A DNA stretch of 64,000 nt. It comes from Eledone cirrhosa (Eukaryota). Positions 5,832 to 63,654 of the stretch are shown here, in pieces. The notes under the pieces were generated by a model, which was given only the letters and a program-made list of their open reading frames with translations, was not told the DNA's origin and did no database searches. The first letter of the stretch is position 1. Every line of letters starts with the position of its first letter. The position numbers and the translations under genes were made by a program. The DNA is taken from contig OZ024749.1 of assembly GCA_964016885.1 (NCBI GenBank), forward strand, positions 26,722,001 through 26,786,000, in the 5' to 3' direction.

Positions 5832-5904
5832 GGGAGACATGATATGAAGGTTAAAACACACTTGTGAATAGTGCAGTTTTAAATCAACATGATATGTTGA
5901 TTTT

Positions 5905-7611
5905 CAAGAAATGGCAACCATCAACCACATAGACATAACGGAGGAGGATGTGGTGTACGCCATTGATGAAATTAGAACAGACTCGGCTGCTGGACCTGAT
6001 GGATTCCCAGCAGTTCTCCTAAAAATATGTAAGCGGGCCTTAGCAACTCCACTGAAGATGCTCTTCAGAAGCTCCTTGGCTAGCGGTGTACTACCCAGGG
6101 AGCTGAAAGAAGGCACAATATGCCCTATCCATAAAGGAGGTAGTAAAGCGGAGGCCAAGAACTATAGGCCAGTCTCCCTGACGTCGCATATCAGTAAGGT
6201 CATGGAGCGAGTCGTCAGAAAGAAACTAATCACTTTCCTCGAAGAAAATGACCGCCTGACTAGCACGCAACATGGCTTCCGCCCAGGAAGAAGCTGCTAC
6301 ATCACTACGACTGGGTACTGAGACAACTACTAGACAGCTCACATGTGGACGTGATATATCTTGACTTTGCGAAGGCCTTTGACAAGGTCGACCACGGAAT
6401 GATATGTCACAAACTACACGGACTCAGCATAACTGGAAAAGTAGGTGAGTGGCTGCATGGCTTCCTAAGGGACAGAAGCCAGGCAGTCGCAGCAAATGGG
6501 GCCCTCTCGAGGGAAACACCGATAACAAGTGGGGTGCCCCAGGGGACAGTCCTGGGACCACTACTGTTTTTGGTGGCTCTCTCGGACATGCCCTCTGTGG
6601 TGCATGCAACAACATCCCTCACTAGCTATGCTGATGACACTAAGGTAGCACAGGCAATCAAAAACCCGGCTGACGCTGCCCTTTTACAGCAGGATCTGGA
6701 TGCCATATACAGATGGGCGGAAGAAAACAACATGCAGTTTAATGCTGGCAAATTCCAAGCCCTACAATACAAACCTGCAAACACAAATATAGTGGAACAC
6801 AGCTACACAGGACCAGGAGGGACCGATATCCCCGTGTCAAAATCGATACGAGACCTGGGCATAGACATGAGCGATGATGCATCTTTTTCTTCACACATCA
6901 TGAAAGTGGCGACAACATGCAGACGACTCGCTGGCTGGATCTTGAGGACTTTCCGGACAAGAGATCGAGACACCATGTTGACACTGTGGAGGACTTTTGT
7001 CCTAAGCCGCCTGGACTACTGCTCCCAGTTGTGGTCACCCCATAGTGTCAAACTGACCACAGAGCTTGAGGCAATCCAGCGAAGCTACACCAAGAGGATT
7101 GCCAAGATGAGGGAGACAAGCTACTGGGAGAGGCTAAAGGAACTGAACCTCTACTCCTTGGAGCGAAGACGGGAGAGATACGCAGTGATCTACATGTGGA
7201 AAATCCTGGAGGGACTAGCACCAAACTTTGGCATTGGGAGCTGGACCAACCGTTGAACAGGACGTCACTGTGTGGTGCCAATGGTCCCGTCTTCCACATC
7301 TAGAATAAGGAGCAGGTATTGCAATAGCCTGGGATTCAAGGGCCCTCAACTCTTCAACAGGCTGCCGAGGCATCTGAGAGACTTGCATGGCGTGGAGGTG
7401 GATGTCTTTAAGAAACATCTCGACACCTTGTTATCCAGGATCCCGGATGAGCCCACAGCAAGACACGAGGGAAACCTAAGGGCAGCAGCAACAAACTCCC
7501 TCCTACACCAGTGGCCAACCTATACAGGCTGGAGATAAAATGTGTAGCAACAAGGGCGGTGCCCCAGCATGGCCTCAGCCGGATGGCTGAAACAGGTAAA
7601 AGAGTAAAAGA

Positions 7612-8081: not shown

Positions 8082-8312
8082 TTTAAGGTTTAAACTTATC
8101 TACGGAACAGGTTTGATTTTGAAATTTAAATGTGTATAAACATCATAGCCTTTTGGCAGCGCAGCTAGTTTTTGTCGATTTATTATTTTAAATCGATGTG
8201 GACGAACTGTAGTAAAATAATTAATATTCTTCATTCTGGCTAATTTTCTTTTGCAATATAAATACAGATGTGTTGGTATCTGTTTCATCATATATATTAC
8301 TCATATATATTA

Positions 8313-8370
<58 letters not shown>

Positions 8371-8374
<4 letters not shown>

Positions 8375-8935
8375 CAAATAACGAAACGAAATTAAATTTC
8401 GTTTCGTTTGTAACTCACTTTTGTATGACTGACGCTTAAACAATTAAGTTAAAGATGTACATCCATATATGTATACTGAAATACTAGTATGTATATGAAT
8501 ACACACACGTATACATATGTAGATGTACCAAGTTTTTTCACTGGTCACTTTACTGTGAGTGGCCAGCTATTCTGTATGTAAACACACAGACAAACCGGTT
8601 TTTAGAGTCATACTGGTTTTTGAGGAAACACCTTTCCTCTATTCTCCAGAAAGGCCGGAAGATAGGTAAATATTGCTGATGAGTTGTAACAACAACGAAA
8701 CTAGTTCAATATTCCTTGTCTGGCTTTCTGTAGAATAGAGGAAAGGTGTTTCCTCAAAAACCAGTATGACTCTAAAAACCGGTTTGTCTGTGTGTTTACA
8801 TACAGAATAGCTGGCCACTCACAGTAAAGTGACCAGTGAAAAAACTTGGTACATCTACATATGTATACGTGTGTGTATTCATATACATACTAGTATTTCA
8901 GTATACATATATGGATGTACATCTTTAACTTAATT

Positions 8936-8940
<5 letters not shown>
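8371..8940. mobile_element. Diverged solo palindromic copy of the 12.6-17.8 kb array unit
   Basis: ~220-bp inverted arms (8437-8660 / 8716-8938), homologous to the array unit, flanked by (TA)n. Confidence 0.9.
8670..8712 (+). ncRNA. Minimal type I hammerhead ribozyme (family B variant)
   Basis: atattg-CTGATGA-gttgt-aaca-acaac-GAAAC-TA-GTT-caatat. Confidence 0.85.
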
Positions 8941-8984
<44 letters not shown>

Positions 8985-10079: not shown

Positions 10080-10122
10080 GTCACTGAGGATGTCACAGAA
10101 TGTGTGACGAAAGAGCTTTGAC
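10080..10122 (+). ncRNA. Minimal hammerhead in a solo Penelope-type terminal repeat
   Basis: gtca-CTGAGGA-t-gtcaca-gaatg-tgtgac-GAAAG-AG-CTT-tgac. Homologous to 57177-57219. Confidence 0.7.
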
Positions 10123-12162: not shown

Positions 12163-12477
12163 GAGAGACGGTTTTAAATGTACATCCTCTGTTTATTATA
12201 TAACCATGGTGTACGTATTTCAAAGACGTAAAAATGATTACATAATAACCCTTTGATGTGTTCTCTTCAGACATGTGAAAAGTTGTGGTGTTTTGTTTTT
12301 GATATGCTACCACAACACTAATAACTACAGTAGCATATCAAAAACAAAACACCACAACTTTACACCCGTCTGAGGAGAACACGTCAAAGGGTTATTAAGT
12401 AATCACTTTGACATCTTTGAAATGCCTATAAGAGGATTATATAATAAATAGAGGATGTACATTTAAAACCATCTCTC
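12163..12477. mobile_element. Imperfect fold-back element with a hammerhead-like core in each arm
   Basis: Arms 12163-12310 / 12330-12477. Plus strand: CTGAGGA(12370)...gtcaaag...ctttgac...TGAAA. Minus strand: CTGAAGA...TGAAA-tacgta. Confidence 0.65.
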
Positions 12478-12754
12478 TTTATATAATATCGACACTCCGG
12501 TTAATACCTTATTGATAATACTCTAAGGAATAGTGAGTTACGTCTGTTTACGACAAAAGTCGGCGGATTAGCTAATTTCCTTAATTGAATAATATATATA
12601 AATATATAAATATACATATATATATATATATAGAAAAACGAATAACGAAACGAAATTAAATTTCGTTTCGCTTCTAACTCACTTTTGTATGACTGACGCT
12701 TAAACAATTAAGTTAAAGTGTACATCTATATATGTATACGGAAGTATCAGTAAG

Positions 12755-12836
<82 letters not shown>

Positions 12837-12993
12837 CACATATGTATACATATGCACATGTACCGAGCTTTTCACTAGACACTTTACAGTGAGTGTCCAG
12901 CTAGTCTGTATGTAAACAGACGAACCGGGTTTTAGAGTCATACGAGTTTTCAAGGAAACACATTTCCTCTATTCTCCAGAGAGCCAGACAGGA

Positions 12994-13036
12994 ATATTGG
13001 ACTAGTTTCGATGTTATTACATCTCATCAGCAATAT
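12994..13036 (-). ncRNA. Hammerhead ribozyme, array copy 1
   Basis: atattg-CTGATGA-gatgt-aata-acatc-GAAAC-TA-GTC-caatat. Confidence 0.88.
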
Positions 13037-13293
13037 ATACCTATCTTTCCGGCTTCTCTGGAGAATTGTAAAAGCACATATCGTTATATGCTTTTTCTAT
13101 GAAAATCAGTAGTGGGCAGACTAATTTGCATAGAACGTGAGTCATTGTACGCACCGGTTCAGCGGAAACGATAAAAACGAATAACGAAACGAAATTAAAT
13201 TTCGTTTCGCTTCTAACTCACTTTTGTATGACTGACGCTTAAACAATTAAGTTAAAGTGTACATCTATATATGTATACGGAAGTATCAGTATG

Positions 13294-13387
<94 letters not shown>

Positions 13388-13544
13388 CACATATGTATAC
13401 ATATGCACATGTACCGAGCTTTTCACTAGACACTTTACAGTGAGTGTCCAGCTAGTCTGTATGTAAACAGACGAACCGGGTTTTAGAGTCATACGAGTTT
13501 TCAAGGAAACACATTTCCTCTATTCTCCAGAGAGCCAGACAGGA

Positions 13545-13587
13545 ATATTGGACTAGTTTCGATGTTATTACATCTCATCAGCAATAT
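13545..13587 (-). ncRNA. Hammerhead ribozyme, array copy 2
   Basis: Identical motif to copy 1. Confidence 0.88.
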
Positions 13588-13890
13588 ATACCTATCTTTC
13601 CGGCTTCTCTGGAGAATTGTAAAAGCACATATCGTTATATGCTTTTTCTATGAAAATCATAGATGTACACTTTAACTTAATTGTTTAAGCGTCAGTCATA
13701 CAAAAGTGAGTTAGAAGCGAAACGAAATTTAATTTCGTTTCGTTATTCGTTTTTATCGTTTCCGCTGAACCGGTGCGTACAATGACTCACGTTCTATGCA
13801 AATTAGTCTGCCCACTACTGATTTTCATAGAAAAAGCATATAACGATATGTGCTTTTACAATTCTCCAGAGAAGCCGGAAAGATAGGTAT

Positions 13891-13933
13891 ATATTGCTGA
13901 TGAGATGTAATAACATCGAAACTAGTCCAATAT
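13891..13933 (+). ncRNA. Hammerhead ribozyme, array copy 3
   Basis: atattg-CTGATGA-gatgt-aata-acatc-GAAAC-TA-GTC-caatat. Confidence 0.88.
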
Positions 13934-14090
13934 TCCTGTCTGGCTCTCTGGAGAATAGAGGAAATGTGTTTCCTTGAAAACTCGTATGACTCTAAAACCC
14001 GGTTCGTCTGTTTACATACAGACTAGCTGGACACTCACTGTAAAGTGTCTAGTGAAAAGCTCGGTACATGTGCATATGTATACATATGTG

Positions 14091-14160
<70 letters not shown>

Positions 14161-14417
14161 CATACTGATACTTCCGTATACATATATAGATGTACACTTT
14201 AACTTAATTGTTTAAGCGTCAGTCATACAAAAGTGAGTTAGAAGCGAAACGAAATTTAATTTCGTTTCGTTATTCGTTTTTATCGTTTCCGCTGAACCGG
14301 TGCGTACAATGACTCACGTTCTATGCAAATTAGTCTGCCCACTACTGATTTTCATAGAAAAAGCATATAACGATATGTGCTTTTACAATTCTCCAGAGAA
14401 GCCGGAAAGATAGGTAT

Positions 14418-14460
14418 ATATTGCTGATGAGATGTAATAACATCGAAACTAGTCCAATAT
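14418..14460 (+). ncRNA. Hammerhead ribozyme, array copy 4
   Basis: Identical motif. Confidence 0.88.
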
Positions 14461-14617
14461 TCCTGTCTGGCTCTCTGGAGAATAGAGGAAATGTGTTTCC
14501 TTGAAAACTCGTATGACTCTAAAACCCGGTTCGTCTGTTTACATACAGACTAGCTGGACACTCACTGTAAAGTGTCTAGTGAAAAGCTCGGTACATGTGC
14601 ATATGTATACATATGTG

Positions 14618-14695
<78 letters not shown>

Positions 14696-14952
14696 CATAC
14701 TGATACTTCCGTATACATATATAGATGTACACTTTAACTTAATTGTTTAAGCGTCAGTCATACAAAAGTGAGTTAGAAGCGAAACGAAATTTAATTTCGT
14801 TTCGTTATTCGTTTTTATCGTTTCCGCTGAACCGGTGCGTACAATGACTCACGTTCTATGCAAATTAGTCTGCCCACTACTGATTTTCATAGAAAAAGCA
14901 TATAACGATATGTGCTTTTACAATTCTCCAGAGAAGCCGGAAAGATAGGTAT

Positions 14953-14995
14953 ATATTGCTGATGAGATGTAATAACATCGAAACTAGTCCAATAT
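14953..14995 (+). ncRNA. Hammerhead ribozyme, array copy 5
   Basis: Identical motif. Confidence 0.88.
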
Positions 14996-15152
14996 TCCTG
15001 TATGGCTCTCTGGAGAATAGAGGAAATGTGTTTCCTTGAAAACTCGTATGACTCTAAAACCCGGTTCGTCTGTTTACATACAGACTAGCTGGACACTCAC
15101 TGTAAAGTGTCTAGTGAAAAGCTCGGTACATGTGCATATGTATACATATGTG

Positions 15153-15232
<80 letters not shown>

Positions 15233-15489
15233 CATACTGATACTTCCGTATACATATATAGATGTACACTTTAACTTAATTGTTTAAGCGTCAGTCATAC
15301 AAAAGTGAGTTAGAAGCGAAACGAAATTTAATTTCGTTTCGTTATTCGTTTTTATCGTTTCCGCTGAACCGGTGCGTACAATGACTCACGTTCTATGCAA
15401 ATTAGTCTGCCCACTACTGATTTTCATAGAAAAAGCATATAACGATATGTGCTTTTACAATTCTCCAGAGAAGCCGGAAAGATAGGTAT

Positions 15490-15532
15490 ATATTGCTGAT
15501 GAGATGTAATAACATCGAAACTAGTCCAATAT
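15490..15532 (+). ncRNA. Hammerhead ribozyme, array copy 6
   Basis: Identical motif. Confidence 0.88.
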
Positions 15533-15689
15533 TCCTGTATGGCTCTCTGGAGAATAGAGGAAATGTGTTTCCTTGAAAACTCGTATGACTCTAAAACCCG
15601 GTTCGTCTGTTTACATACAGACTAGCTGGACACTCACTGTAAAGTGTCTAGTGAAAAGCTCGGTACATGTGCATATGTATACATATGTG

Positions 15690-15735
<46 letters not shown>

Positions 15736-15784
15736 CATACTGATACTTCCGTATACATATATAGATGTACACTTTAACTTAATT

Positions 15785-15836
<52 letters not shown>

Positions 15837-16084
15837 AATTAAGTTAAAGTGTACATCTATATATGTATACGGAAGTATCAGTATGCATACATATTTATAT
15901 GTATATATATATATATATATATAAATACACATATGTATACATATGCACATGTACCGAGCTTTTCACTAGACACTTTACAGTGAGTGTCCAGCTAGTCTGT
16001 ATGTAAACAGACGAACCGGGTTTTAGAGTCATACGAGTTTTCAAGGAAACACATTTCCTCTATTCTCCAGAGAGCCAGACAGGA

Positions 16085-16127
16085 ATATTGGACTAGTTTC
16101 GATGTTATTACATCTCATCAGCAATAT
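16085..16127 (-). ncRNA. Hammerhead ribozyme, array copy 7
   Basis: Identical motif on the minus strand. Confidence 0.88.
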
Positions 16128-16430
16128 ATACCTATCTTTCCGGCTTCTCTGGAGAATTGTAAAAGCACATATCGTTATATGCTTTTTCTATGAAAATCAG
16201 TAGTGGGCAGACTAATTTGCATAGAACGTGAGTCATTGTACGCACCGGTTCAGCGGAAACGATAAAAACGAATAACGAAACGAAATTAAATTTCGTTTCG
16301 CTTCTAACTCACTTTTGTATGACTGACGCTTAAACAATTAAGTTAAAGTGTACATCTATGATTTTCATAGAAAAAGCATATAACGATATGTGCTTTTACA
16401 ATTCTCCAGAGAAGCCGGAAAGATAGGTAT

Positions 16431-16473
16431 ATATTGCTGATGAGATGTAATAACATCGAAACTAGTCCAATAT
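16431..16473 (+). ncRNA. Hammerhead ribozyme, array copy 8
   Basis: Identical motif. Confidence 0.88.
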
Positions 16474-16634
16474 TCCTGTCTGGCTCTCTGGAGAATAGAG
16501 GAAATGTGTTTCCTTGAAAACTCGTATGACTCTAAAACCCGGTTCGTCTGTTTACATACAGACTAGCTGGACACTCACTGTAAAGTGTCTAGTGAAAAGC
16601 TCGGTACATGTGCATATGTATACATATGTGTATT

Positions 16635-16716
<82 letters not shown>

Positions 16717-16973
16717 CATACTGATACTTCCGTATACATATATAGATGTACACTTTAACTTAATTGTTTAAGCGTCAGTCATACAAAAGTGAGTTAGAAG
16801 CGAAACGAAATTTAATTTCGTTTCGTTATTCGTTTTTATCGTTTCCGCTGAGCCGGTGCGTACAATGACTCACGTTCTATGCAAATTAGTCTGCCCACTA
16901 CTGATTTTCATAGAAAAAGCATATAACGATATGTGCTTTTACAATTCTCCAGAGAAGCCGGAAAGATAGGTAT

Positions 16974-17016
16974 ATATTGCTGATGAGATGTAATAACATC
17001 GAAACTAGTCCAATAT
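16974..17016 (+). ncRNA. Hammerhead ribozyme, array copy 9
   Basis: Identical motif. Confidence 0.88.
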
Positions 17017-17173
17017 TCCTGTCTGGCTCTCTGGAGAATAGAGGAAATGTGTTTCCTTGAAAACTCGTATGACTCTAAAACCCGGTTCGTCTGTTTACAT
17101 ACAGACTAGCTGGACACTCACTGTAAAGTGTCTAGTGAAAAGCTCGGTACATGTGCATATGTATACATATGTG

Positions 17174-17255
<82 letters not shown>

Positions 17256-17512
17256 CATACTGATACTTCCGTATACATATATAGATGTACACTTTAACTT
17301 AATTGTTTAAGCGTCAGTCATACAAAAGTGAGTTAGAAGCGAAACGAAATTTAATTTCGTTTCGTTATTCGTTTTTATCGTTTCCGCTGAACCGGTGCGT
17401 ACAATGACTCACGTTCTATGCAAATTAGTCTGCCCACTACAGATTTTCATAGAAAAAGCATATAACGATATGTGCTTTTACAATTCTCCAGAGAAGCCGG
17501 AAAGATAGGTAT

Positions 17513-17555
17513 ATATTGATGATGAGATGTAATAACATCGAAACTAGTCCAATAT
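17513..17555 (+). ncRNA. Hammerhead ribozyme, array copy 10, core mutated (C3A)
   Basis: atattg-ATGATGA-gatgt...; otherwise identical to the other copies. Confidence 0.75.
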
Positions 17556-17712
17556 TCCTGTATGGCTCTCTGGCGAATAGAGGAAATGTGTTTCCTTGAA
17601 AACTCGTATGACTCTAAAACCCGGTTCGTCTGTTTACATACAGACTAGCTGGACACTCACTGTAAAGTGTCTAGTGAAAAGCTCGGTACATGTGCATATG
17701 TATACATATGTG

Positions 17713-17752
<40 letters not shown>

Positions 17753-17801
17753 CATACTGATACTTCCGTATACATATATAGATGTACACTTTAACTTAAT
17801 T

Positions 17802-17877
<76 letters not shown>

Positions 17878-18479: not shown

Positions 18480-21400
18480 ACCCAACACCCCTCCCCCCTA
18501 CCCCCACCCCCACGCACCACCATTGCTATTACGTGGACCAATCATAAAACAGAGCCCCCACGCATCACCAGTATTATTACGCGGACCAATCAGAAGCCAG
18601 AGGCCTATACTATCGCTTGCCTGGTTGCCTTTCAATATGATGGATGGATGGACTGCGGAATCCTGGAGAGTGGAGGAGAGAGAGAGAAAAATCTGGACGC
18701 TCAGCGACAATGCCAAAGATAAAGACAAATTCACCTCTTGGACGAGAATGCGAGCACTCCTCATTGTTTCGACCGCGGACGGCTAACATAACCCCATCGC
18801 CCCCCGCCCCCCACCGCCCCCAACCCCCAAACGCAATCCAAAACTTCAGAGTTGGTACCATAAATGTAGGCACCCTAAAGGGTCGCGCTAACGAGGTTGT
18901 AGAAATGCTTGAACGTAAGGAGGTCGATGTTTGTTGTATTCAAGAGACCAGGTGGAGGGGTGGGTCTGCTAGGTTCATTGAGGGTAAAAAACGATGTTAT
19001 AAGCTTTTCTGGGTGGGAAACGACGATGGGCTGGGTGGAGTAGGAATCATGGTAGCAGAAAAGTGGGCAGATAAGATAATAGACGTAAATAGAGTGAACG
19101 ACAGAATAATTAAAATACGACTTGTCCTCAATAGAACTACGGTGACAGTAATATCTGCGTACGCACCCCAATCCGGACTGCCCGGCACTATAAAAGACAG
19201 ATTCTATGAGACACTGATGCTAACTACCTCCCAAATATCCGACAGTGACTATATAATTATCGCAGGCGACCTAAATGGTCACGTTGGACAACATTGTGAC
19301 GGCTACGACGAAATCCATGGAGGCTATGGGTTTGGTACTAGAAATGAGGAAGGCTCCAGAATCCTGGAATTCTGTGATGCAAATAACCTAACTATCTGTA
19401 ACACTAACTTCAAAAAACGTGACAATCACCTGATCACCTATAGATCCGGGGAACACACAAGCCAGGTAGATTATATCCTTACCAGAAGACGTGACAGAGT
19501 GTCTGTTGTAAACACTAAATCCCTCCCCCATGAAGAATGCACCTCCCAACATAGACTGATAATTAGCGACCTCATAGTCAGGACGAGACGTACTCGACAG
19601 CAGAAGAGGACTATCCTCAGGAGAAAAATATGGAAGCTAAAGGACCCCACAGCCAGGAATAAATTTCAAAGCATATTACTTGATGCTTTCGACAGTAAGG
19701 AAGAACATTTAGAGTCGGACAATATAGAGGGAGAGTGGGAATTTCTGAAAGCAAACCTGCTGTTGGCGACAGACGAAGTCTGTGGCTGGAGCAGGCCTGT
19801 AGGCAGGAGGAGAGTAACATGGTGGTGGAACAGTAAGGTGGAGGGGTCAATTAAGGCCAAAAAGCAGGCTTGGAAAGTATGGCGGGATGGGGGAAGTAGA
19901 GAGGACTATCAAGTGGCCAGGAGGGAAGCTAGGAGACAAGTGTACTTAGCAAGAAGGGAAGCTGAGGAAAGAAAGTTCAAGCATGTTCTACAACGCGATG
20001 ACCAAAAACGTGAGGTGTTCAGGATTGCTAGGCAATGCGTCAAGGAAAACCGTGATATTGTCGGGGAGAAGTGTGTACTAAACGACGATGGCACACTTGC
20101 CATCACCGACGCTGATAAGAAGGTAGCTTGGAAGTGTCACTATGAAAGGCTACAAAATGAGGAGAATAAATGGGAGAAAGACAGTCTCCCCCATATCGAC
20201 CCAATAGAGGGACCAGCAGTGTTAGTCGAGGGGAGTATAATAAGTAAGGCAATCAAGGATATGAAGACGGGTAAGGCGGCTGGGCCTTCGGAAATAGTTG
20301 CTGAGATGCTGAAGGCATCTGGCACGGTGGGACACACCATGGTCACCCGCATAGTTAACCAAGTCGTACAGAATGGGGTTGTTCCGAAGGACTGGCATAG
20401 CAGCATCATCGTTAACTGTTATAAGGGTAAAGGAGACGCCCTCGATAGGAGTAACTATAGAGGCATTAAATTAATCGACCAGGTCATGAAGGTCACGGAA
20501 AAAGTAATAGCGCAACTAATCAGAGAGAGAATTGACCTAGATGAAATGCAGTTCGGGTTTGTGTCAGGCAAAAGTACCACAGACGCTCTTTTCATAGTAC
20601 GACAACTACAGGAGAAGTACCTAGCTACAGGTAAGCCCCTCTACTTAGCTTTTGTCGACTTGGAGAAAGCCTTCGACAGAGTCCCCCGCTCCATTATCTG
20701 GTGGGCTCTTAGAAAACTAGGCGTTGACGAATGGCTTGTGAGGGCTATACAAGCCATGTATAAAGAAACAGTCAGCAAGGTTAGAATTAACAACGAATAT
20801 AGTGAAGAGTTTAGCGTAAAAGTTGGCATCCATCAGGGCTCTGTTCTCAGCCCACTACTATTTATTATTGCCCTTCAGGCTATAACAGAGGAGTTCAAGA
20901 CAGGCTGCCCATGGGAACTCCTATACGCAGACGACCTGACACTCATAGCGGAATCAATGGCCGAGCTAGAGAAGAAATTCCAAACATGGAAGCACGTCCT
21001 AGAGTCAAAAGGACTTAAAATTAACCTGGCTAAGACCAAAGTACTAGTTTGTAGGAAAGAAAACAAGGCGGCGGTCCCTTCTGGGAAATGGTCGTGCTCG
21101 GTGTGTAGGAAAGGCGTAGGTAGAAACTCCATTTTATGTCCTAAATGCAAAGTATGGGTGCATAAAAGATGTAGTGGGATCACAGGTAAGCTAACTAAGA
21201 ACATAGATTTTACATGTGGCCGGTGCTCTGGTGCAATAAGTAGCAGCAAGTGCCCACAAAATACTAGCTCTTTCAATTGCGCAGAGGGTTCTATAGAAAT
21301 AGTGGACAGCTTCCGTTACCTGGGCGATAAAATCAGCAGTGGGGGAGGGTGCTCTGAAAGTACTGTAGCTAGAGTCAGAACTGGTTGGAAAAAGTTCAGA

Positions 21401-22275
21401 GAGCTTATACCACTATTAGCTGCTAAAGGGTTCTCACTAAAAATGAAAGGCAGGTTGTACGATGCCTGCATACGAACAGCAATGCTGCATGGCAGTGAGA
21501 CCTGGGCATTGTGTGCAGAGGATATACGCAGACTAGAGAGGAACGAAGCTTGCATGCTCCGCTGGATGTGTAACAGTAATATACGTGAACGGCAAAGCAT
21601 AAACGAACTAAGGAAAAAATTAGAGATAAGAGGGATCAGATGTTGTTTACTCGAGAGAAGGCTACGTTGGTATGGACACGTGATGCGCATGAAAGTCGAC
21701 AGCTGTATAACAAAGTGCAGGGCAATAAAGATAGACGGTAGTCACGGAATAGGCAGACCTAGAAAAACCTGGGACGAGCTGATAAACTCCGACATCACAC
21801 ACTTACACCTCTCCAAGACAATGTCACTGGACCGAGACCTTTGGCGGTACTCAGTAACAGAGAAGACCCGCCTTACCTAAATATATAGTAAAACCTACTC
21901 CAGCCAGTAGGCATCTCTAACAAAATACACCCCGTCCCACCACCACCACCCCCTCCCCATCCACACCACCCCGTTCTATGTAAAGTTATGTTGGTGCCGC
22001 GCCATCGAGGCCGAAACAAATGAGATCGTGTAGGTGTCACGACAAAAAAACACACAGTCCACGCTGTAATGTGGCCGTGTAGGCAACACGGTAAAAACCT
22101 CCCAGACCCACACTGTAAATGTGGTTGGTGTTAGGAAGGGCATCCAACTGTAGAAAACCTGCCAGACAGTCCTATGCGAGCAAGACAATCACTCTTGCCT
22201 CAAGTGGGACTACCCCCGTCCAAACCCATGCAAGCGTGGAACACGGACGTTAAACGTTGATGATGATGATGATGA
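18480..22275 (+). mobile_element. Apparently full-length RTE LINE
   Basis: Single ORF, ~380-bp 3' UTR containing ggttggtgttaggaagggcatcca, and a (GAT)n tail at 22258-22275. The 5' boundary is approximate. Confidence 0.88.
18644..21880 (+). CDS. RTE-clade LINE ORF: APE endonuclease + reverse transcriptase + PHD-like finger
   Basis: Uninterrupted 1078 codons. APE motifs GTINVGTL, CIQETRW, AGDLNGHVG, SQVDYIL, SQHRL. RT motifs NYRGIKL, FVDLEKAFDRV, GIHQGSVLSPLLF, YADD. RTE C-terminus GSETW, RRLRWYGHV, GRPRKTW. The start may be the ATG at 18710. Confidence 0.96.
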   Translation: MDGLRNPGEWRREREKSGRSATMPKIKTNSPLGRECEHSSLFRPRTANITPSPPAPHRPQPPNAIQNFRVGTINVGTLKGRANEVVEMLERKEVDVCCIQETRWRGGSARFIEGKKRCYKLFWVGNDDGLGGVGIMVAEKWADKIIDVNRVNDRIIKIRLVLNRTTVTVISAYAPQSGLPGTIKDRFYETLMLTTSQISDSDYIIIAGDLNGHVGQHCDGYDEIHGGYGFGTRNEEGSRILEFCDANNLTICNTNFKKRDNHLITYRSGEHTSQVDYILTRRRDRVSVVNTKSLPHEECTSQHRLIISDLIVRTRRTRQQKRTILRRKIWKLKDPTARNKFQSILLDAFDSKEEHLESDNIEGEWEFLKANLLLATDEVCGWSRPVGRRRVTWWWNSKVEGSIKAKKQAWKVWRDGGSREDYQVARREARRQVYLARREAEERKFKHVLQRDDQKREVFRIARQCVKENRDIVGEKCVLNDDGTLAITDADKKVAWKCHYERLQNEENKWEKDSLPHIDPIEGPAVLVEGSIISKAIKDMKTGKAAGPSEIVAEMLKASGTVGHTMVTRIVNQVVQNGVVPKDWHSSIIVNCYKGKGDALDRSNYRGIKLIDQVMKVTEKVIAQLIRERIDLDEMQFGFVSGKSTTDALFIVRQLQEKYLATGKPLYLAFVDLEKAFDRVPRSIIWWALRKLGVDEWLVRAIQAMYKETVSKVRINNEYSEEFSVKVGIHQGSVLSPLLFIIALQAITEEFKTGCPWELLYADDLTLIAESMAELEKKFQTWKHVLESKGLKINLAKTKVLVCRKENKAAVPSGKWSCSVCRKGVGRNSILCPKCKVWVHKRCSGITGKLTKNIDFTCGRCSGAISSSKCPQNTSSFNCAEGSIEIVDSFRYLGDKISSGGGCSESTVARVRTGWKKFRELIPLLAAKGFSLKMKGRLYDACIRTAMLHGSETWALCAEDIRRLERNEACMLRWMCNSNIRERQSINELRKKLEIRGIRCCLLERRLRWYGHVMRMKVDSCITKCRAIKIDGSHGIGRPRKTWDELINSDITHLHLSKTMSLDRDLWRYSVTEKTRLT

Positions 22276-32823: not shown

Positions 32824-32956
32824 TTAATATAGATGAGATTCTACAGGACTAGAACTGTTTCATTCTTTAGAAATCATCAGGAATCTCCTGAGATTCCTGA
32901 TGATTTCTAAAGAATGAAACAGTTCTAGTCCTGTAGAATCTCATCTATATTAAAAC
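32821..32956. repeat. Perfect ~66-bp-arm palindrome containing a hammerhead-like core on both strands
   Basis: Centre at ~32888. Plus strand: gagattc-CTGATGA(32897)-tttct-aa-agaa-TGAAAC-agttcta-GTC-ctgtagaatctc. Confidence 0.7.
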
Positions 32957-39845: not shown

Positions 39846-40519
39846 AAGTTATATTTAATTTGTTGGGATTCCAACAAACTTAAAAGTTTATAACTGATAT
39901 ATAGTACTCAAAAGTTTACTGGAGTAAATATTCAATATATTAATAAATGGAAACTATATTTATAAAACCATAATTATTTTATTATATATAGCAGTCTTGG
40001 TGTGCTTTCATCAGATAAAATACAAAATTTGTTTTATAAATAGTGACATAACCGTGGAAAACAACCTTGACGGTTGAAAATTCGCTGGATAGTGAAACAT
40101 TTTATTGAGGGTAATTCAAAGTTCTGTGTGAATATGCAAATGAATGTCCGAAAAATTGGAAAAAAAACAACCGTTTATTTAAATTACGCATTGGGCAGAA
40201 GAGAGAGAGAAAAAGAAGCGAGTGAAAAGAAAAGAAAATATTAGTATATGTAGAAGTATAGTGAAGAAATAAAGTGAAGAAAGAGCGATGAAAGAATCTT
40301 ATCCGAGGATGAGTTCATATAACGTAAATACGACGTCTTATATTTATGTTAGATATTTATGTTACGTATATTTACTAATAATTGTTAGAATTCAATAATA
40401 ATAAATATTTATTTACTATTATAAGTATATAGAAAATTAGATATATAGAAAAAATAAAGATATATTAAAAATAAAAAATAAAGATATAATAAAATATATT
40501 AAGATATATTAAAATATAT

Positions 40520-42137
40520 CAAAATATATTAAAATATATTAAAAATAGATTTAAATAAATATGAAGTAGAAGCATAGGATAAAATGTAGATATAAGGATA
40601 GATATATGAGTGGATAGATGGGTATATCATGTTATAGGTGATAAATTATGAGGGATACTGGTTTATATTTAGTGTAAATATTTAAATTAAATTAAATTAA
40701 ATTAAATTAACTGAGTCAATAAGATTACTTATATGTTTTAATGTTTTACATTTGAAAAATATTGAAAATCCCAGTTTTGTTTATTTATTAGTTAATTATG
40801 AGATAATTTTGACAAAGATATGTTTAAAGATATATTTAACCAGAGTTAGTTATTGGTTATAACTCTAATATTAAATAATTACAAAAATTTACAAAAATTT
40901 TTAAAATGATATGGAACTTAAAATCCAAAAATAGAGACTATTCTTTATCTTGGAATATAATTTCATAAGCACCTGCTTACAAAAACACAGCTTTATCCAA
41001 ATTTTGCAATTTGTGTGTTGAAGAAATTTTCTTAATACTTAAATGTAAGAACTCCATTAATTTACGTAACAATTTATTTAGTTCTTGTAAACAACGCCAA
41101 AACTCAACTTTTAGATCTATATATAAAATATAATTTACACGTTAAATCTTCTCTACATAATGTTTACTTTATCCAAACACCTATAATCTCATTTCTTAAA
41201 TGATATGCATATATGTTCATAAATTCTAAATCTTTAAATTTAAATTTAATGTAATTCTAATTTTAATATCTTCTTAAATATTTTACTTCTAAAATTTTTA
41301 CTTTTTAATATTTTTTATCTTTATTTATCTTACTTCCAAAATATCTCATAATCTTTTTAGAAAAATTAGTTAAATTTTTTTAAAAATTACTTATTTCAAA
41401 AAACTAGTTTTGGGGTCACCTTAATATTTTTAATATATTTTTTTATATTTTTCTAATATTTTTAAATATTTTTAGGTATTTTTAAATATTTCTTAATATT
41501 TCTTTATATTGAATAATTTTAGGTTTTAATTATATTTCCTGAATCATTTTAGGTTTTTAATTAATTTTAAACACTTTTTAAATGTTTTCAAAAGATTTTT
41601 GAGTATCTTCGGAGTCTTTTTGAGATTTTTTTTAAATCTCTTGGAAAGTTTTTCTAGGAATTTTCAAGCATTTTGTCTAGAAATGTTAATATTTTATAGT
41701 TTTAAGTTTTAAATGGTTTTAGTATTTTCTTATACTTTTAATTAATTTTTTAATTTTTTGTAAATGTTTGTAATTATTTAATATTAGAGTTATAACCAAT
41801 AAATAACTCTGGCTAAATATATCTTTAAACATATCTTTGTCAAAATTATCTCATAATTAACTAATAAATAAACAAAACTGGGATTTTCAATATTTTTCCA
41901 ATGTAAAACATTAAAACATATAAGTAATCTTATTGACTCAGTTAATTTAATTTAATTTAATTTAATTTAAATACTTACACTAAATATAAACTTGTATCCC
42001 TCATAATTTATCACCTATAACATGATATACCCATCTATCCACTCATATATCTATCCTTATATCTACATTTTATCCTATGCTTCTACTTCATATTTATTTT
42101 AATCTATTTTTAATATATTTTAATATATTTTAATATA
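40520..42137. repeat. Large AT-rich inverted repeat (~370-bp arms, ~880-bp spacer)
   Basis: 40520-40885 is the near-exact reverse complement of 41767-42137. Confidence 0.9.
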
Positions 42138-42138
42138 T

Positions 42139-50319: not shown

Positions 50320-50381
50320 TTTTATTATATATATTTCGGAGGTACTGTGCTGTTTTTTCAGTATGTCCTCATCAGATAAAA
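50320..50381 (-). ncRNA. Minimal hammerhead (family A)
   Basis: ttttat-CTGATGA-ggacatactg...cagtacctc-CGAAA-tatata-TA-ataaaa. Confidence 0.75.
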
Positions 50382-55234: not shown

Positions 55235-55244
55235 TAAGTATATA

Positions 55245-57371
55245 TTGAAATGTCCCCAGATGTATCTGACAGCACGGAGGAATTCCTCAGCAGAATCAGC
55301 GAAAGTAACCGATCTAGGGACCTAACAAACTGCATAATAGGTAGTATGGATGTTGTGTCCCTATATCCATCTATTGACGCGGATTTTGCTCGGGAGAAAT
55401 GCGTAGAAATGATCAGTAAGAGCAATGTTGAGTTCCGTGGGATTGATACCAGTGAGCTGGGACTCCTACTTAAACTTACCTATAGTAATGATTATCTAGA
55501 TACATATGACCTTAGCAACCTGTGCCCTACAAGACCAGCAAGAAGCAGACCACCTACCATTACCTCGATGGCCAACAAAACCCACACAGATAGATGGAAC
55601 GGGTGGACCAGAACCATACAGACCCCCGAAAATCACGATGAACTAAAGAAAATGATTGCACATGCGGTGGGGGGCCAACATAAAATTAACCCTTAAGGAA
55701 CATATGTTCAAATTTAATGGAAAAACATATGCCCAAGAGGAGGGAGGAGCCATTGGTGTTAGCATTGCAGGTGACATAGCTAACCTATTCATGGTATGGT
55801 GGGACAATAGACTTAAACTTAAACTTAAAGAACAATTAGAAGACCCCTTAACCCTGACAATGTACTCCCGCTACGTTGATGATATAAACATCGTAGTTAA
55901 AACACCCCCATTAGAGAACAGTCAGGAATTAGAGAAAAACACCATGGAAAGCATCCAGCAAATAGCTAACTCCATCCACCAGAGTATTAGAGTTACTATA
56001 GACTACACAAGCAAACACCCCAACTATCGATTACCTGTACTAGACACAGAGCTCTGGTTAGAAACCATTAATAACAAAAACAAATCCTCCATTCCCATTA
56101 TGCCAAACCCATGAGACTTCCAAACATCTGATCCACCGAAACTCAGCTGCTTCGGACCACACCAAAATCAACATACTGATTGCGGATTTGGTACGGGTGA
56201 TGAGAAACGTGTCGCGCATGTGCAACCCCGAAGAACTAGAGAGACATATACAACACTTCATCCACCGTATGCAGTTCTCTGGTTACAATCAGAGAGATAA
56301 AATCAGTGTATATAGAGGAGCCAGAACCAAATGGGAAAAAATGGTAAATAATGATACAAATGGGACCTGCCCCTTGTATAGGAGCAAATTTAGGAATAGA
56401 ATAGAAAGAACCAGGAATAAGGTTAATAGAATAAACTCATGGTGTGATAGCAATAAGTACCAGAGTGTAATGTTCATCAATATAACCCCTAGAGGTGAAT
56501 TAGCTTACAAATTTAGAAGGGCCTTAGATAAACATAAACTCAATATTAAGATAATAGAAAGACCAGGTACCTCCATAAAAACACTTATTAGCAATACATA
56601 CCCTTTTCAAAGACGTCTGTAAATTAAGCCCCCATATTAACCGTAAAACTAGAAATGTAATATATAGCATAAGATGTACTGAAGGACAATGTAGAGATAA
56701 AAATATAGTGTACATAGGTGAGACAGCTCGTAGTATAGGGGAACGGATAAATGAACACTGGCGAGACCTTCAAGATAGTAAAGAATCATCTGTACTCTAC
56801 CAACATGCTAAAATAGAACATAAGGGTAAATTAGAGAACATAGAAATAAAAATAGAATCTACACACAGAAAAGACGCAATGTTTAGACAAATCACAGAGG
56901 CAGTAAACATAAATGAACTCCAACCAAAATTAAATAGAAAACATGAATGGAATAGCAACATCACAACTTACAATTAAGGACAAAATGAAAACACACACAC
57001 ACATAGAACAAACAACCAACCAGTAACATGTAAATAAACAAATAAATAAACAAATATAAACACACACAGACACCCGGATGTAACACATGCGCAAACTAAG
57101 CACACAACACACACAAAAACAAGATGGCGTTGGACAGAACAAAGGAGAGGCACAAAAACAAAGAAAAGAATCCCCAGTCACTGAAGAGGTCACATAATGT
57201 GTGACGAAAAAACTTTGACAATATATGAACAATCGTCTGGTTGTGGAACCAACCAACCAACCAGAAATTTATAAATTCTTAAATTTATAAATTTAATTTA
57301 TAATAAATTGGAGTGAAAGCAACTGGTGCGTGTGTTTCTTATTGGCAACATGACCTTCTCAAAGCATATCA

Positions 57372-61693: not shown

Positions 61694-63515
<1,822 letters not shown>

Positions 63516-63553
63516 CATACATACATACATACATACATACATACATACATACA

Positions 63554-63585
<32 letters not shown>

Positions 63586-63594
63586 CATGTATAT

Positions 63595-63654
<60 letters not shown>

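Follow-up and report, generated by a model that had tools for sequence, protein, structure and literature searches.

How does a small non-coding repeat come to lie head-to-head with an inverted copy of itself? The question is raised by positions 8371-8940 of a 64,000-nucleotide stretch of Eledone cirrhosa DNA (contig OZ024749.1; the whole stretch is referred to below as the window), where a hammerhead motif is placed between two long inverted arms. The initial annotation of this locus proposed that the inversion arose by cDNA snapping back on the stem that flanks the ribozyme and priming itself, and that a paired change in stem II reveals selection on the fold. The problem is wider than one copy. 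The route by which Penelope-like elements produce inverted, one-side-tailed insertions is termed undefined in the passages of the papers cited below, self-priming being the published guess, and the enzyme that moves animal retrozymes has so far been inferred from distribution and phylogeny alone.

The insertion at 8371-8940 and its ribozyme

The insertion and its target are composed of the following parts, with monomer positions counted from the first base past the predicted ribozyme cut:

8290-8370: (TA)n target, left flank
8371-8436, - strand: tail, on the left arm only, about 66 nt, monomer about 234-302
8437-8653, - strand: left inverted arm, running from monomer 233 down to 18, 283 nt with the tail included
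8641-8653: junction microhomology, formed by the native extended stem's 5' strand, which can be assigned to either arm
8654-8723, + strand: single-copy spacer that carries the ribozyme and runs on into the right arm
8724-8940, + strand: right inverted arm, its outer end being the second fixed terminus (the "230" site, 228-233)
8941-8980: (TA)n target, right flank

The inverted arms of about 220 bp with the hammerhead at their apex, as first annotated, were borne out: the arms 8437-8653 and 8724-8940 pair over 217 bp around the hammerhead, with one mismatch, a private change at 8731. The annotation had missed the stretch of about 66 nt (8371-8436) by which the left arm overshoots the inverted repeat and which the right arm lacks; this tail contains a 14-bp hairpin, and its outer end is the fixed "302" terminus. 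The switch from arm to arm sits within the 13-nt native stem (8641-8653 / 8724-8736). The tailed arm is 283 nt long and the ribozyme-bearing arm 289 nt, and neither contains the other. The description of the copy as diverged does not hold, as 40 copies scored elsewhere are 98-100% identical to it; its identity of 84-86% to the array further along the window arises because that array belongs to another subfamily. Comparison with four contig sets returned family variants only. The locus is probably a recently inserted hammerhead retrozyme, 466 nt long and non-coding, and is read below together with the rest of its family.

Type I hammerheads have a CUGANGA and GAAA core, three helices of which helix I is open, and an NUH triplet. 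All of these are found in the motif of the spacer, with GUU as the triplet and a predicted cut after 8706:

8670-8712, + strand: minimal type I hammerhead motif (Rfam HH9)
8670-8675/8707-8712, + strand: stem I
8676-8682, + strand: CUGAUGA core
8683-8687/8692-8696, + strand: stem II
8697-8700, + strand: GAAA core

The HH9 match of 37.7 bits (E 6e-6) does not reach the gathering score of 52. Rfam matches to microRNAs and FasX, also under their gathering scores, were set aside as hairpin or TA-repeat artefacts. Helix III consists of one pair with a palindromic CUAG loop, which suggests that the predicted self-cleavage would require a dimer (passages of PMC7229834). The core had been called unchanged relative to the array; this is correct for CUGAUGA and GAAA, but residue 17 is U here (8706) and C in the array (GUU versus GUC). 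Across loci this residue is C, U or A, with G in one locus only, and GUU is the form of the largest subfamily. The extended stem described around the ribozyme of the array unit is present (fold of 14380-14495, z -6.25). The array itself is built as follows:

12634-17806: sister-subfamily array; it has 10 copies of the hammerhead, of which one is mutated in the core (17519)
12634: tailed end
13659: inversion junction (monomer 359/204)
15790-15831: tail-to-tail TA run
16359: the identical junction, inverted

Its units are 527-551 nt long, lengthened by an expanded internal TA run, and its two inversions (13659, 16359), which had gone unnoticed, lie away from the stem. Several other features were recorded in the window. 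At 32858-32919 a different family forms a fold-back in which each arm has a hammerhead-like core and the two arms face each other head-to-head about stem I, and hammerhead-like motifs of other families lie at 50356, 51077, 53413, 54436 and 42306. Further long inverted repeats span 12174-12480 and 40514-42138. A LINE with an intact 1,079-aa endonuclease-reverse transcriptase frame that includes a PHD finger occupies 18641-21880 (+ strand), and a second, broken LINE fragment lies at 5893-7256 (+ strand).

Stem II and conservation of the fold

The double change in stem II is real: GTTGT/ACAAC stands where the array copies have GATGT/ACATC, and the altered bases, 8684 and 8695, are partners in one pair. 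Compensatory changes are in themselves ordinary for hammerheads. The T-A form of the ribozyme has 5,201 exact matches in the genome, whereas the two half-changed forms of stem II have three copies each. On a tree of 137 loci, computed without the two sites, 77 loci are T-A, 59 are A-T and one is mismatched; parsimony requires 2 changes at one of the sites and 3 at the other. The A-T/T-A change is one or two subfamily-founding events, inherited by the copy at 8371-8940 and not acquired there.

A wider comparison is provided by a sister family of about 420 nt (L029, L031, L094, L100, L107, L109, L136, L138 and L167), 65-75% identical, whose triplet is GUA or GUU and whose insertions likewise have two ends, around a related hairpin. 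There the core is kept, and both sides are altered in three pairs of stem I and in three to four of stem II. In an alignment of 22 rows, 9 from the retrozyme family and 13 from the sister family and therefore essentially of two clades, both partners differ in 7 of 15 pairs, and 95% of the cells are paired as against 35-52% in slid controls; the count of double-changed pairs alone is no better than in shuffles (121/500), and the first stem II pair is unpaired in 12 of the 13 sister-family rows. Helices I and II covary in this two-clade alignment, and the extended stem shows a G-C / G.U / A-U series among subfamilies. The proposal of selection on the fold is supported, chiefly by data other than this pair: the scarcity of half-changed forms and the paired changes of the sister family favour it, while the A-T/T-A pair by itself represents only one or two events. 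Conservation of the fold is well supported, and the single stem II pair taken alone is weak evidence for it.

For that pair, a neutral templated event was also considered, in which a substitution is followed by hairpin-guided correction of its partner. The small number of events on the tree agrees with it, as does a single A-T unit amid the T-A units of L013 (G000:C7 near 48,392,900), where both sites were swapped together. However, it leaves aside the other paired changes between the families, the series in the extended stem and the near-absence of G at residue 17, and we regard it as doubtful.

Head-to-head insertions and the origin of the arms

Across the 3-Gb genome a search with the ribozyme pattern gave 10,734 matches, and the reversed control gave none; five of the first 100 matches belong to the sister family. 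The monomer, of 466-469 nt, is non-coding and is repeated in tandem with a hammerhead in each unit, in arrays of up to about 30 units, which is the organisation of non-LTR retrozymes. Retrozymes have been treated as non-autonomous derivatives of Penelope (passages of bioRxiv 10.64898/2026.07.22.740005 and PMC7229834). The reverse transcriptase and GIY-YIG endonuclease frame of Penelope-like elements is absent from the monomer, and such frames occur elsewhere in the window and in the genome. Within the window, a frameshifted Penelope-like element (55238-56977; weak RVT_1, GIY-YIG E 3e-5) is followed by a hammerhead motif at 57181-57209, to which another motif at 10084-10112 is related, and a broken Penelope-like frame (61694-63647, - strand) has 43-56% identity to the 832-codon element described below.

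Genome-wide, 1,978 matches were obtained with a pattern for (TA)n abutting an end at monomer position 302, and the copy at 8371-8940 is one among about two thousand back-to-back insertions of this small hammerhead repeat. Mapping on a circular reference in both orientations covered 166 element-bearing regions: 86 from ribozyme and sequence searches, eight of them chosen for a junction in the stem, and 80 taken consecutively from the 302 ends listed for one contig. The eight stem-selected loci, which include the copy at 8371-8940, were kept outside the unselected counts; L157, a duplicate of L156, was dropped, the window array was entered as one junction, and five sister-family regions were excluded from junction mapping. 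The head-to-head layout was found in 62 of the 86 search-selected and 58 of the 80 tail-selected regions, and 9 of 40 apparently single loci proved, by a flank probe, to have a second arm too short to map. Tail-to-tail pairs inside an insertion were absent from the 166 regions save for the TA run of the window array. Among 49 assessable head-to-head loci chosen regardless of their ends, 40 have one outer end at 302 and one at 228-233, and none has two alike; in the loci selected by the 302 end, the other end is at 228-233 in 49 of 55 assessable cases. The two fixed sites are 70 nt apart, and loci with a 228-233 end alone occur. Penelope-like elements are recognised by truncated copies in inverted orientation, by a tail on one side and by their (TA)n targets (passages of PMC8557442), and this footprint, an inverted 5'-truncated copy with a one-sided tail in an AT-rich or (TA)n target, is the one found here.

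If the flanking stem had caused the inversions, their breakpoints should gather there; the initial annotation itself had proposed this mapping and had named breakpoints unrelated to the stem as the result that speaks against its reading. That result was obtained. In 111 unselected junctions the breakpoints are uniform around the monomer (KS p 0.49), 14 of 222 fall in the stem arms where 15.7 are expected, and no junction is in register with the stem, L013 and L090 lying nearby but out of register. Genome-wide, the exact in-register junction has at least eight matches including the copy at 8371-8940, a lower bound set by the exact 23-mer search (L114 and L115 share rare variants), against 0.2-0.3 expected by chance (about 1,400-2,500 inverted loci x 2x13/466^2, by our own arithmetic). 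The extended stem is a real but rare microhomology hotspot, about 25-45 times above chance, which explains about 0.5% of the inversions. Short microhomologies are general: 2 or more nt are shared at 46 of 96 insert-free junctions (null 18%) and 4 or more at 17 (null 2.3%), and inserts, mostly local copies, are present at 15 of the 111. At L203 (~490-560) both arms break off at monomer position 14. Between them lies a foreign, GC-rich insert of 65 nt, for which Rfam gave no family above chance. Two other ideas were rejected. Run-off at the cleavage site finds no excess of breakpoints in positions 1-30 (16/222), and the arms traverse the predicted site without stopping there. Two enzymes trailing on one circle seemed to fit the arm from the 230 site reaching slightly further 5' than the tailed one in 15 of 40 loci (p 0.004), which fell to 10 of 49 in new loci (p 0.71).

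The arms were probably copied as two separate target-primed cDNAs by a Penelope-type enzyme and then, in the copy at 8371-8940, joined through the complementary strands of the stem. In vitro, a Penelope-like protein from a lizard was able to cut both strands of its target and to extend them; it initiates at two sites, one on each side of the tail, and ribozyme cleavage is dispensable (passages of PMC11167929). It is proposed that a reverse transcriptase/endonuclease of this type would cut (TA)n and that each cut end would prime one cDNA, starting at the two fixed sites, separated by 70 nt, of an RNA that is either multimeric or circular; such a template is suggested because the arms cross the cleavage site and arrays reach 30 units. 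Both cDNAs would halt at random points, and their ends would be joined by chance complementarity of 1-8 nt or with templated inserts. In the copy at 8371-8940, the left cDNA (283 nt) would have halted in the 3' strand of the stem, and the right one (289 nt) would have gone past the ribozyme to halt in the 5' strand; having stopped in opposite strands, the two ends would be complementary over 13 nt. This reading is likely and rests on the head-to-head arms, the two fixed ends, the (TA)n flanks, the uniform microhomologous breakpoints, the non-nested arms and the chimeras described below. The counterpoint is that the arms share one haplotype in 89 of 91 loci (two loci show two or more segregating differences), which is also what snap-back predicts, so that two-cDNA priming needs both primers on one RNA or on one source.

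Snap-back holds that one cDNA folds on a complementary stretch and copies itself, with later cutting or flipping giving the tail and the orientation of the spacer. The common haplotype, the excess of microhomology and the enrichment of stem junctions are all in its favour, and near-equal arm lengths are in modest excess (21/89 against a null of 12.9 +/- 3.1, p 0.009, at a threshold picked after looking), L113 and L115 fitting exactly; of the six stem-junction loci that are fully assessable, four are compatible with its geometry. In a snap-back product, however, the second arm must be contained in the first, and 30 of 89 two-end loci fit neither order; the 59 that fit compare with 59.9 +/- 3.8 when arm lengths are shuffled, and the lengths are uncorrelated (rho 0.08). 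L141 has correctly ended arms of 64 and 55 nt with no common base, hence no inverted repeat at all. The arms of the copy at 8371-8940 are likewise not nested, and its ribozyme lies on the untailed arm, where simple snap-back predicts the strand of the tailed one; later flipping of the spacer between the arms would rescue this and any other locus with an inverted repeat, but the private differences between arms (104 in 14,246 sites) argue that exchange between them is not saturating. Short loops are not in excess in the replication set (KS p 0.45), loci with a 228-233 end alone indicate that this site primes independently, and chimeras of two elements are impossible as copies of one cDNA. As a general, stem-dependent cause snap-back is refuted; in its broader form it is unlikely, although a minority of the insertions may be true fold-backs.

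Inversion after insertion, by template switching during DNA replication or by recombination among neighbouring copies, does occur in the sense that the window array is secondarily rearranged, with one junction present twice in inverted form and two 233 ends, that L156 and L157 are duplicates and that (TA)n runs are unstable. As the source of the family's layout it is quite improbable: 58 of the 80 tail-selected loci are inverted, always head-to-head and with the second end at a fixed site, and switching at the DNA level is disfavoured because a fixed second terminus and a single orientation would not result from it. Perfect long palindromes are a known class of artefact, and none of the contigs compared with the copy covers its whole length, which would suit fold-back chimeric reads in the assembly or library. 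This is hardly credible given the asymmetric, family-specific ends, the private mismatch between the arms, junctions that differ at over 100 loci, and an autonomous element that shows the same layout.

The two-cDNA reading receives further support from head-to-head chimeras of the retrozyme with Penelope-like elements in 4 of the 166 regions (L219/L006, L144, L168 and L082). In the cleanest, L219/L006 (L219:202-4376; G000:C4 near 350,998,200-351,002,375), the two partners share a (TA)n site: the retrozyme arm, 500 nt long and tailed, meets, with a 1-nt overlap and no TA, a 3.67-kb 5'-truncated Penelope-like element of opposite orientation, which contributes its own short terminus in (TA)n. At L144:1521-3950, L168:2958-3200 and L082:1972-2165, which are less clean, retrozyme arms give way to sequence from the 3' portion of another Penelope-like family, and L082 and L168 have the longer end on both sides. 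The partner in L219 is a young element with a 4,199-bp unit (L259:2672-6870; also L260 and L261) and 40 scored copies at 99-100%, and its 832-codon stop-to-stop frame is intact in three of three full units. Motifs resembling those of a reverse transcriptase and a GIY-YIG endonuclease were read in it by eye, and a hammerhead-like motif with a variant core lies near its 3' end; among its Atlas look-alikes, some members have GIY-YIG and RVT_1, and Pfam gave nothing significant on a 712-aa part of the candidate. Its insertions, at 30 loci, combine a short end and a 170-nt tail, one each, in eight of eight head-to-head pairs. One full-length unit compared with the monomer shares no significant sequence with it (best E 0.15). 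The element is a candidate mover of the retrozyme. It is possible, and put forward tentatively, that the Penelope-type enzyme acts as a two-headed integrase whose heads each prime one target end at a fixed RNA site of their own and can carry different RNAs; the chimeras would then be single events that name the enzyme of the retrozyme without shared sequence. They could instead be two adjacent insertions with the gap deleted. The chimeric insertions point to a candidate enzyme-RNA pair, and the family supplies over a thousand young junctions for separating the models.

Relation to known systems

In L1 twin priming, two target ends prime two cDNAs, which are joined head-to-head by microhomology. 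On the two-cDNA reading, the retrozyme insertions resemble it in all of these respects and differ in that both primers use fixed internal sites and that inversion is the majority outcome; their arms also usually duplicate each other, unlike those of L1, because the proposed template is multimeric or circular. A literature search of main texts open without subscription returned no paper in which twin priming is invoked for Penelope-like elements or for retrozymes.

As in the metazoan non-LTR retrozymes described in the passages cited (PMC7229834; bioRxiv 10.64898/2026.07.22.740005), the family consists of non-coding, low-GC tandem monomers with a type I hammerhead in each and thousands of copies, and the one-pair helix III with a palindromic tetraloop is common to the motif at 8670-8712 and to axolotl HHR_Amex1. 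It differs in a monomer whose 466 nt lie at the top of the 150-450 range given, in the GUU triplet of its largest subfamily, and in a feature that the passages cited do not describe, the prevalence of head-to-head insertions with two fixed ends; the word "inverted" has no occurrence in PMC7229834.

In layout the family resembles endonuclease-bearing Penelope-like elements as presented in the cited parts of PMC8557442, PMC3846280 and PMC11167929: an inverted 5'-truncated copy, a tail at one end only and (TA)n targets, together with partial tandems, a hammerhead upstream of the ends and two start sites bounding the tail. The retrozyme differs in lacking an open reading frame and in its tail of about 70 nt, compared with 30-40 in those papers. 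Penelope inversions were ascribed to self-priming in PMC3846280, whereas the retrozyme data favour two primers.
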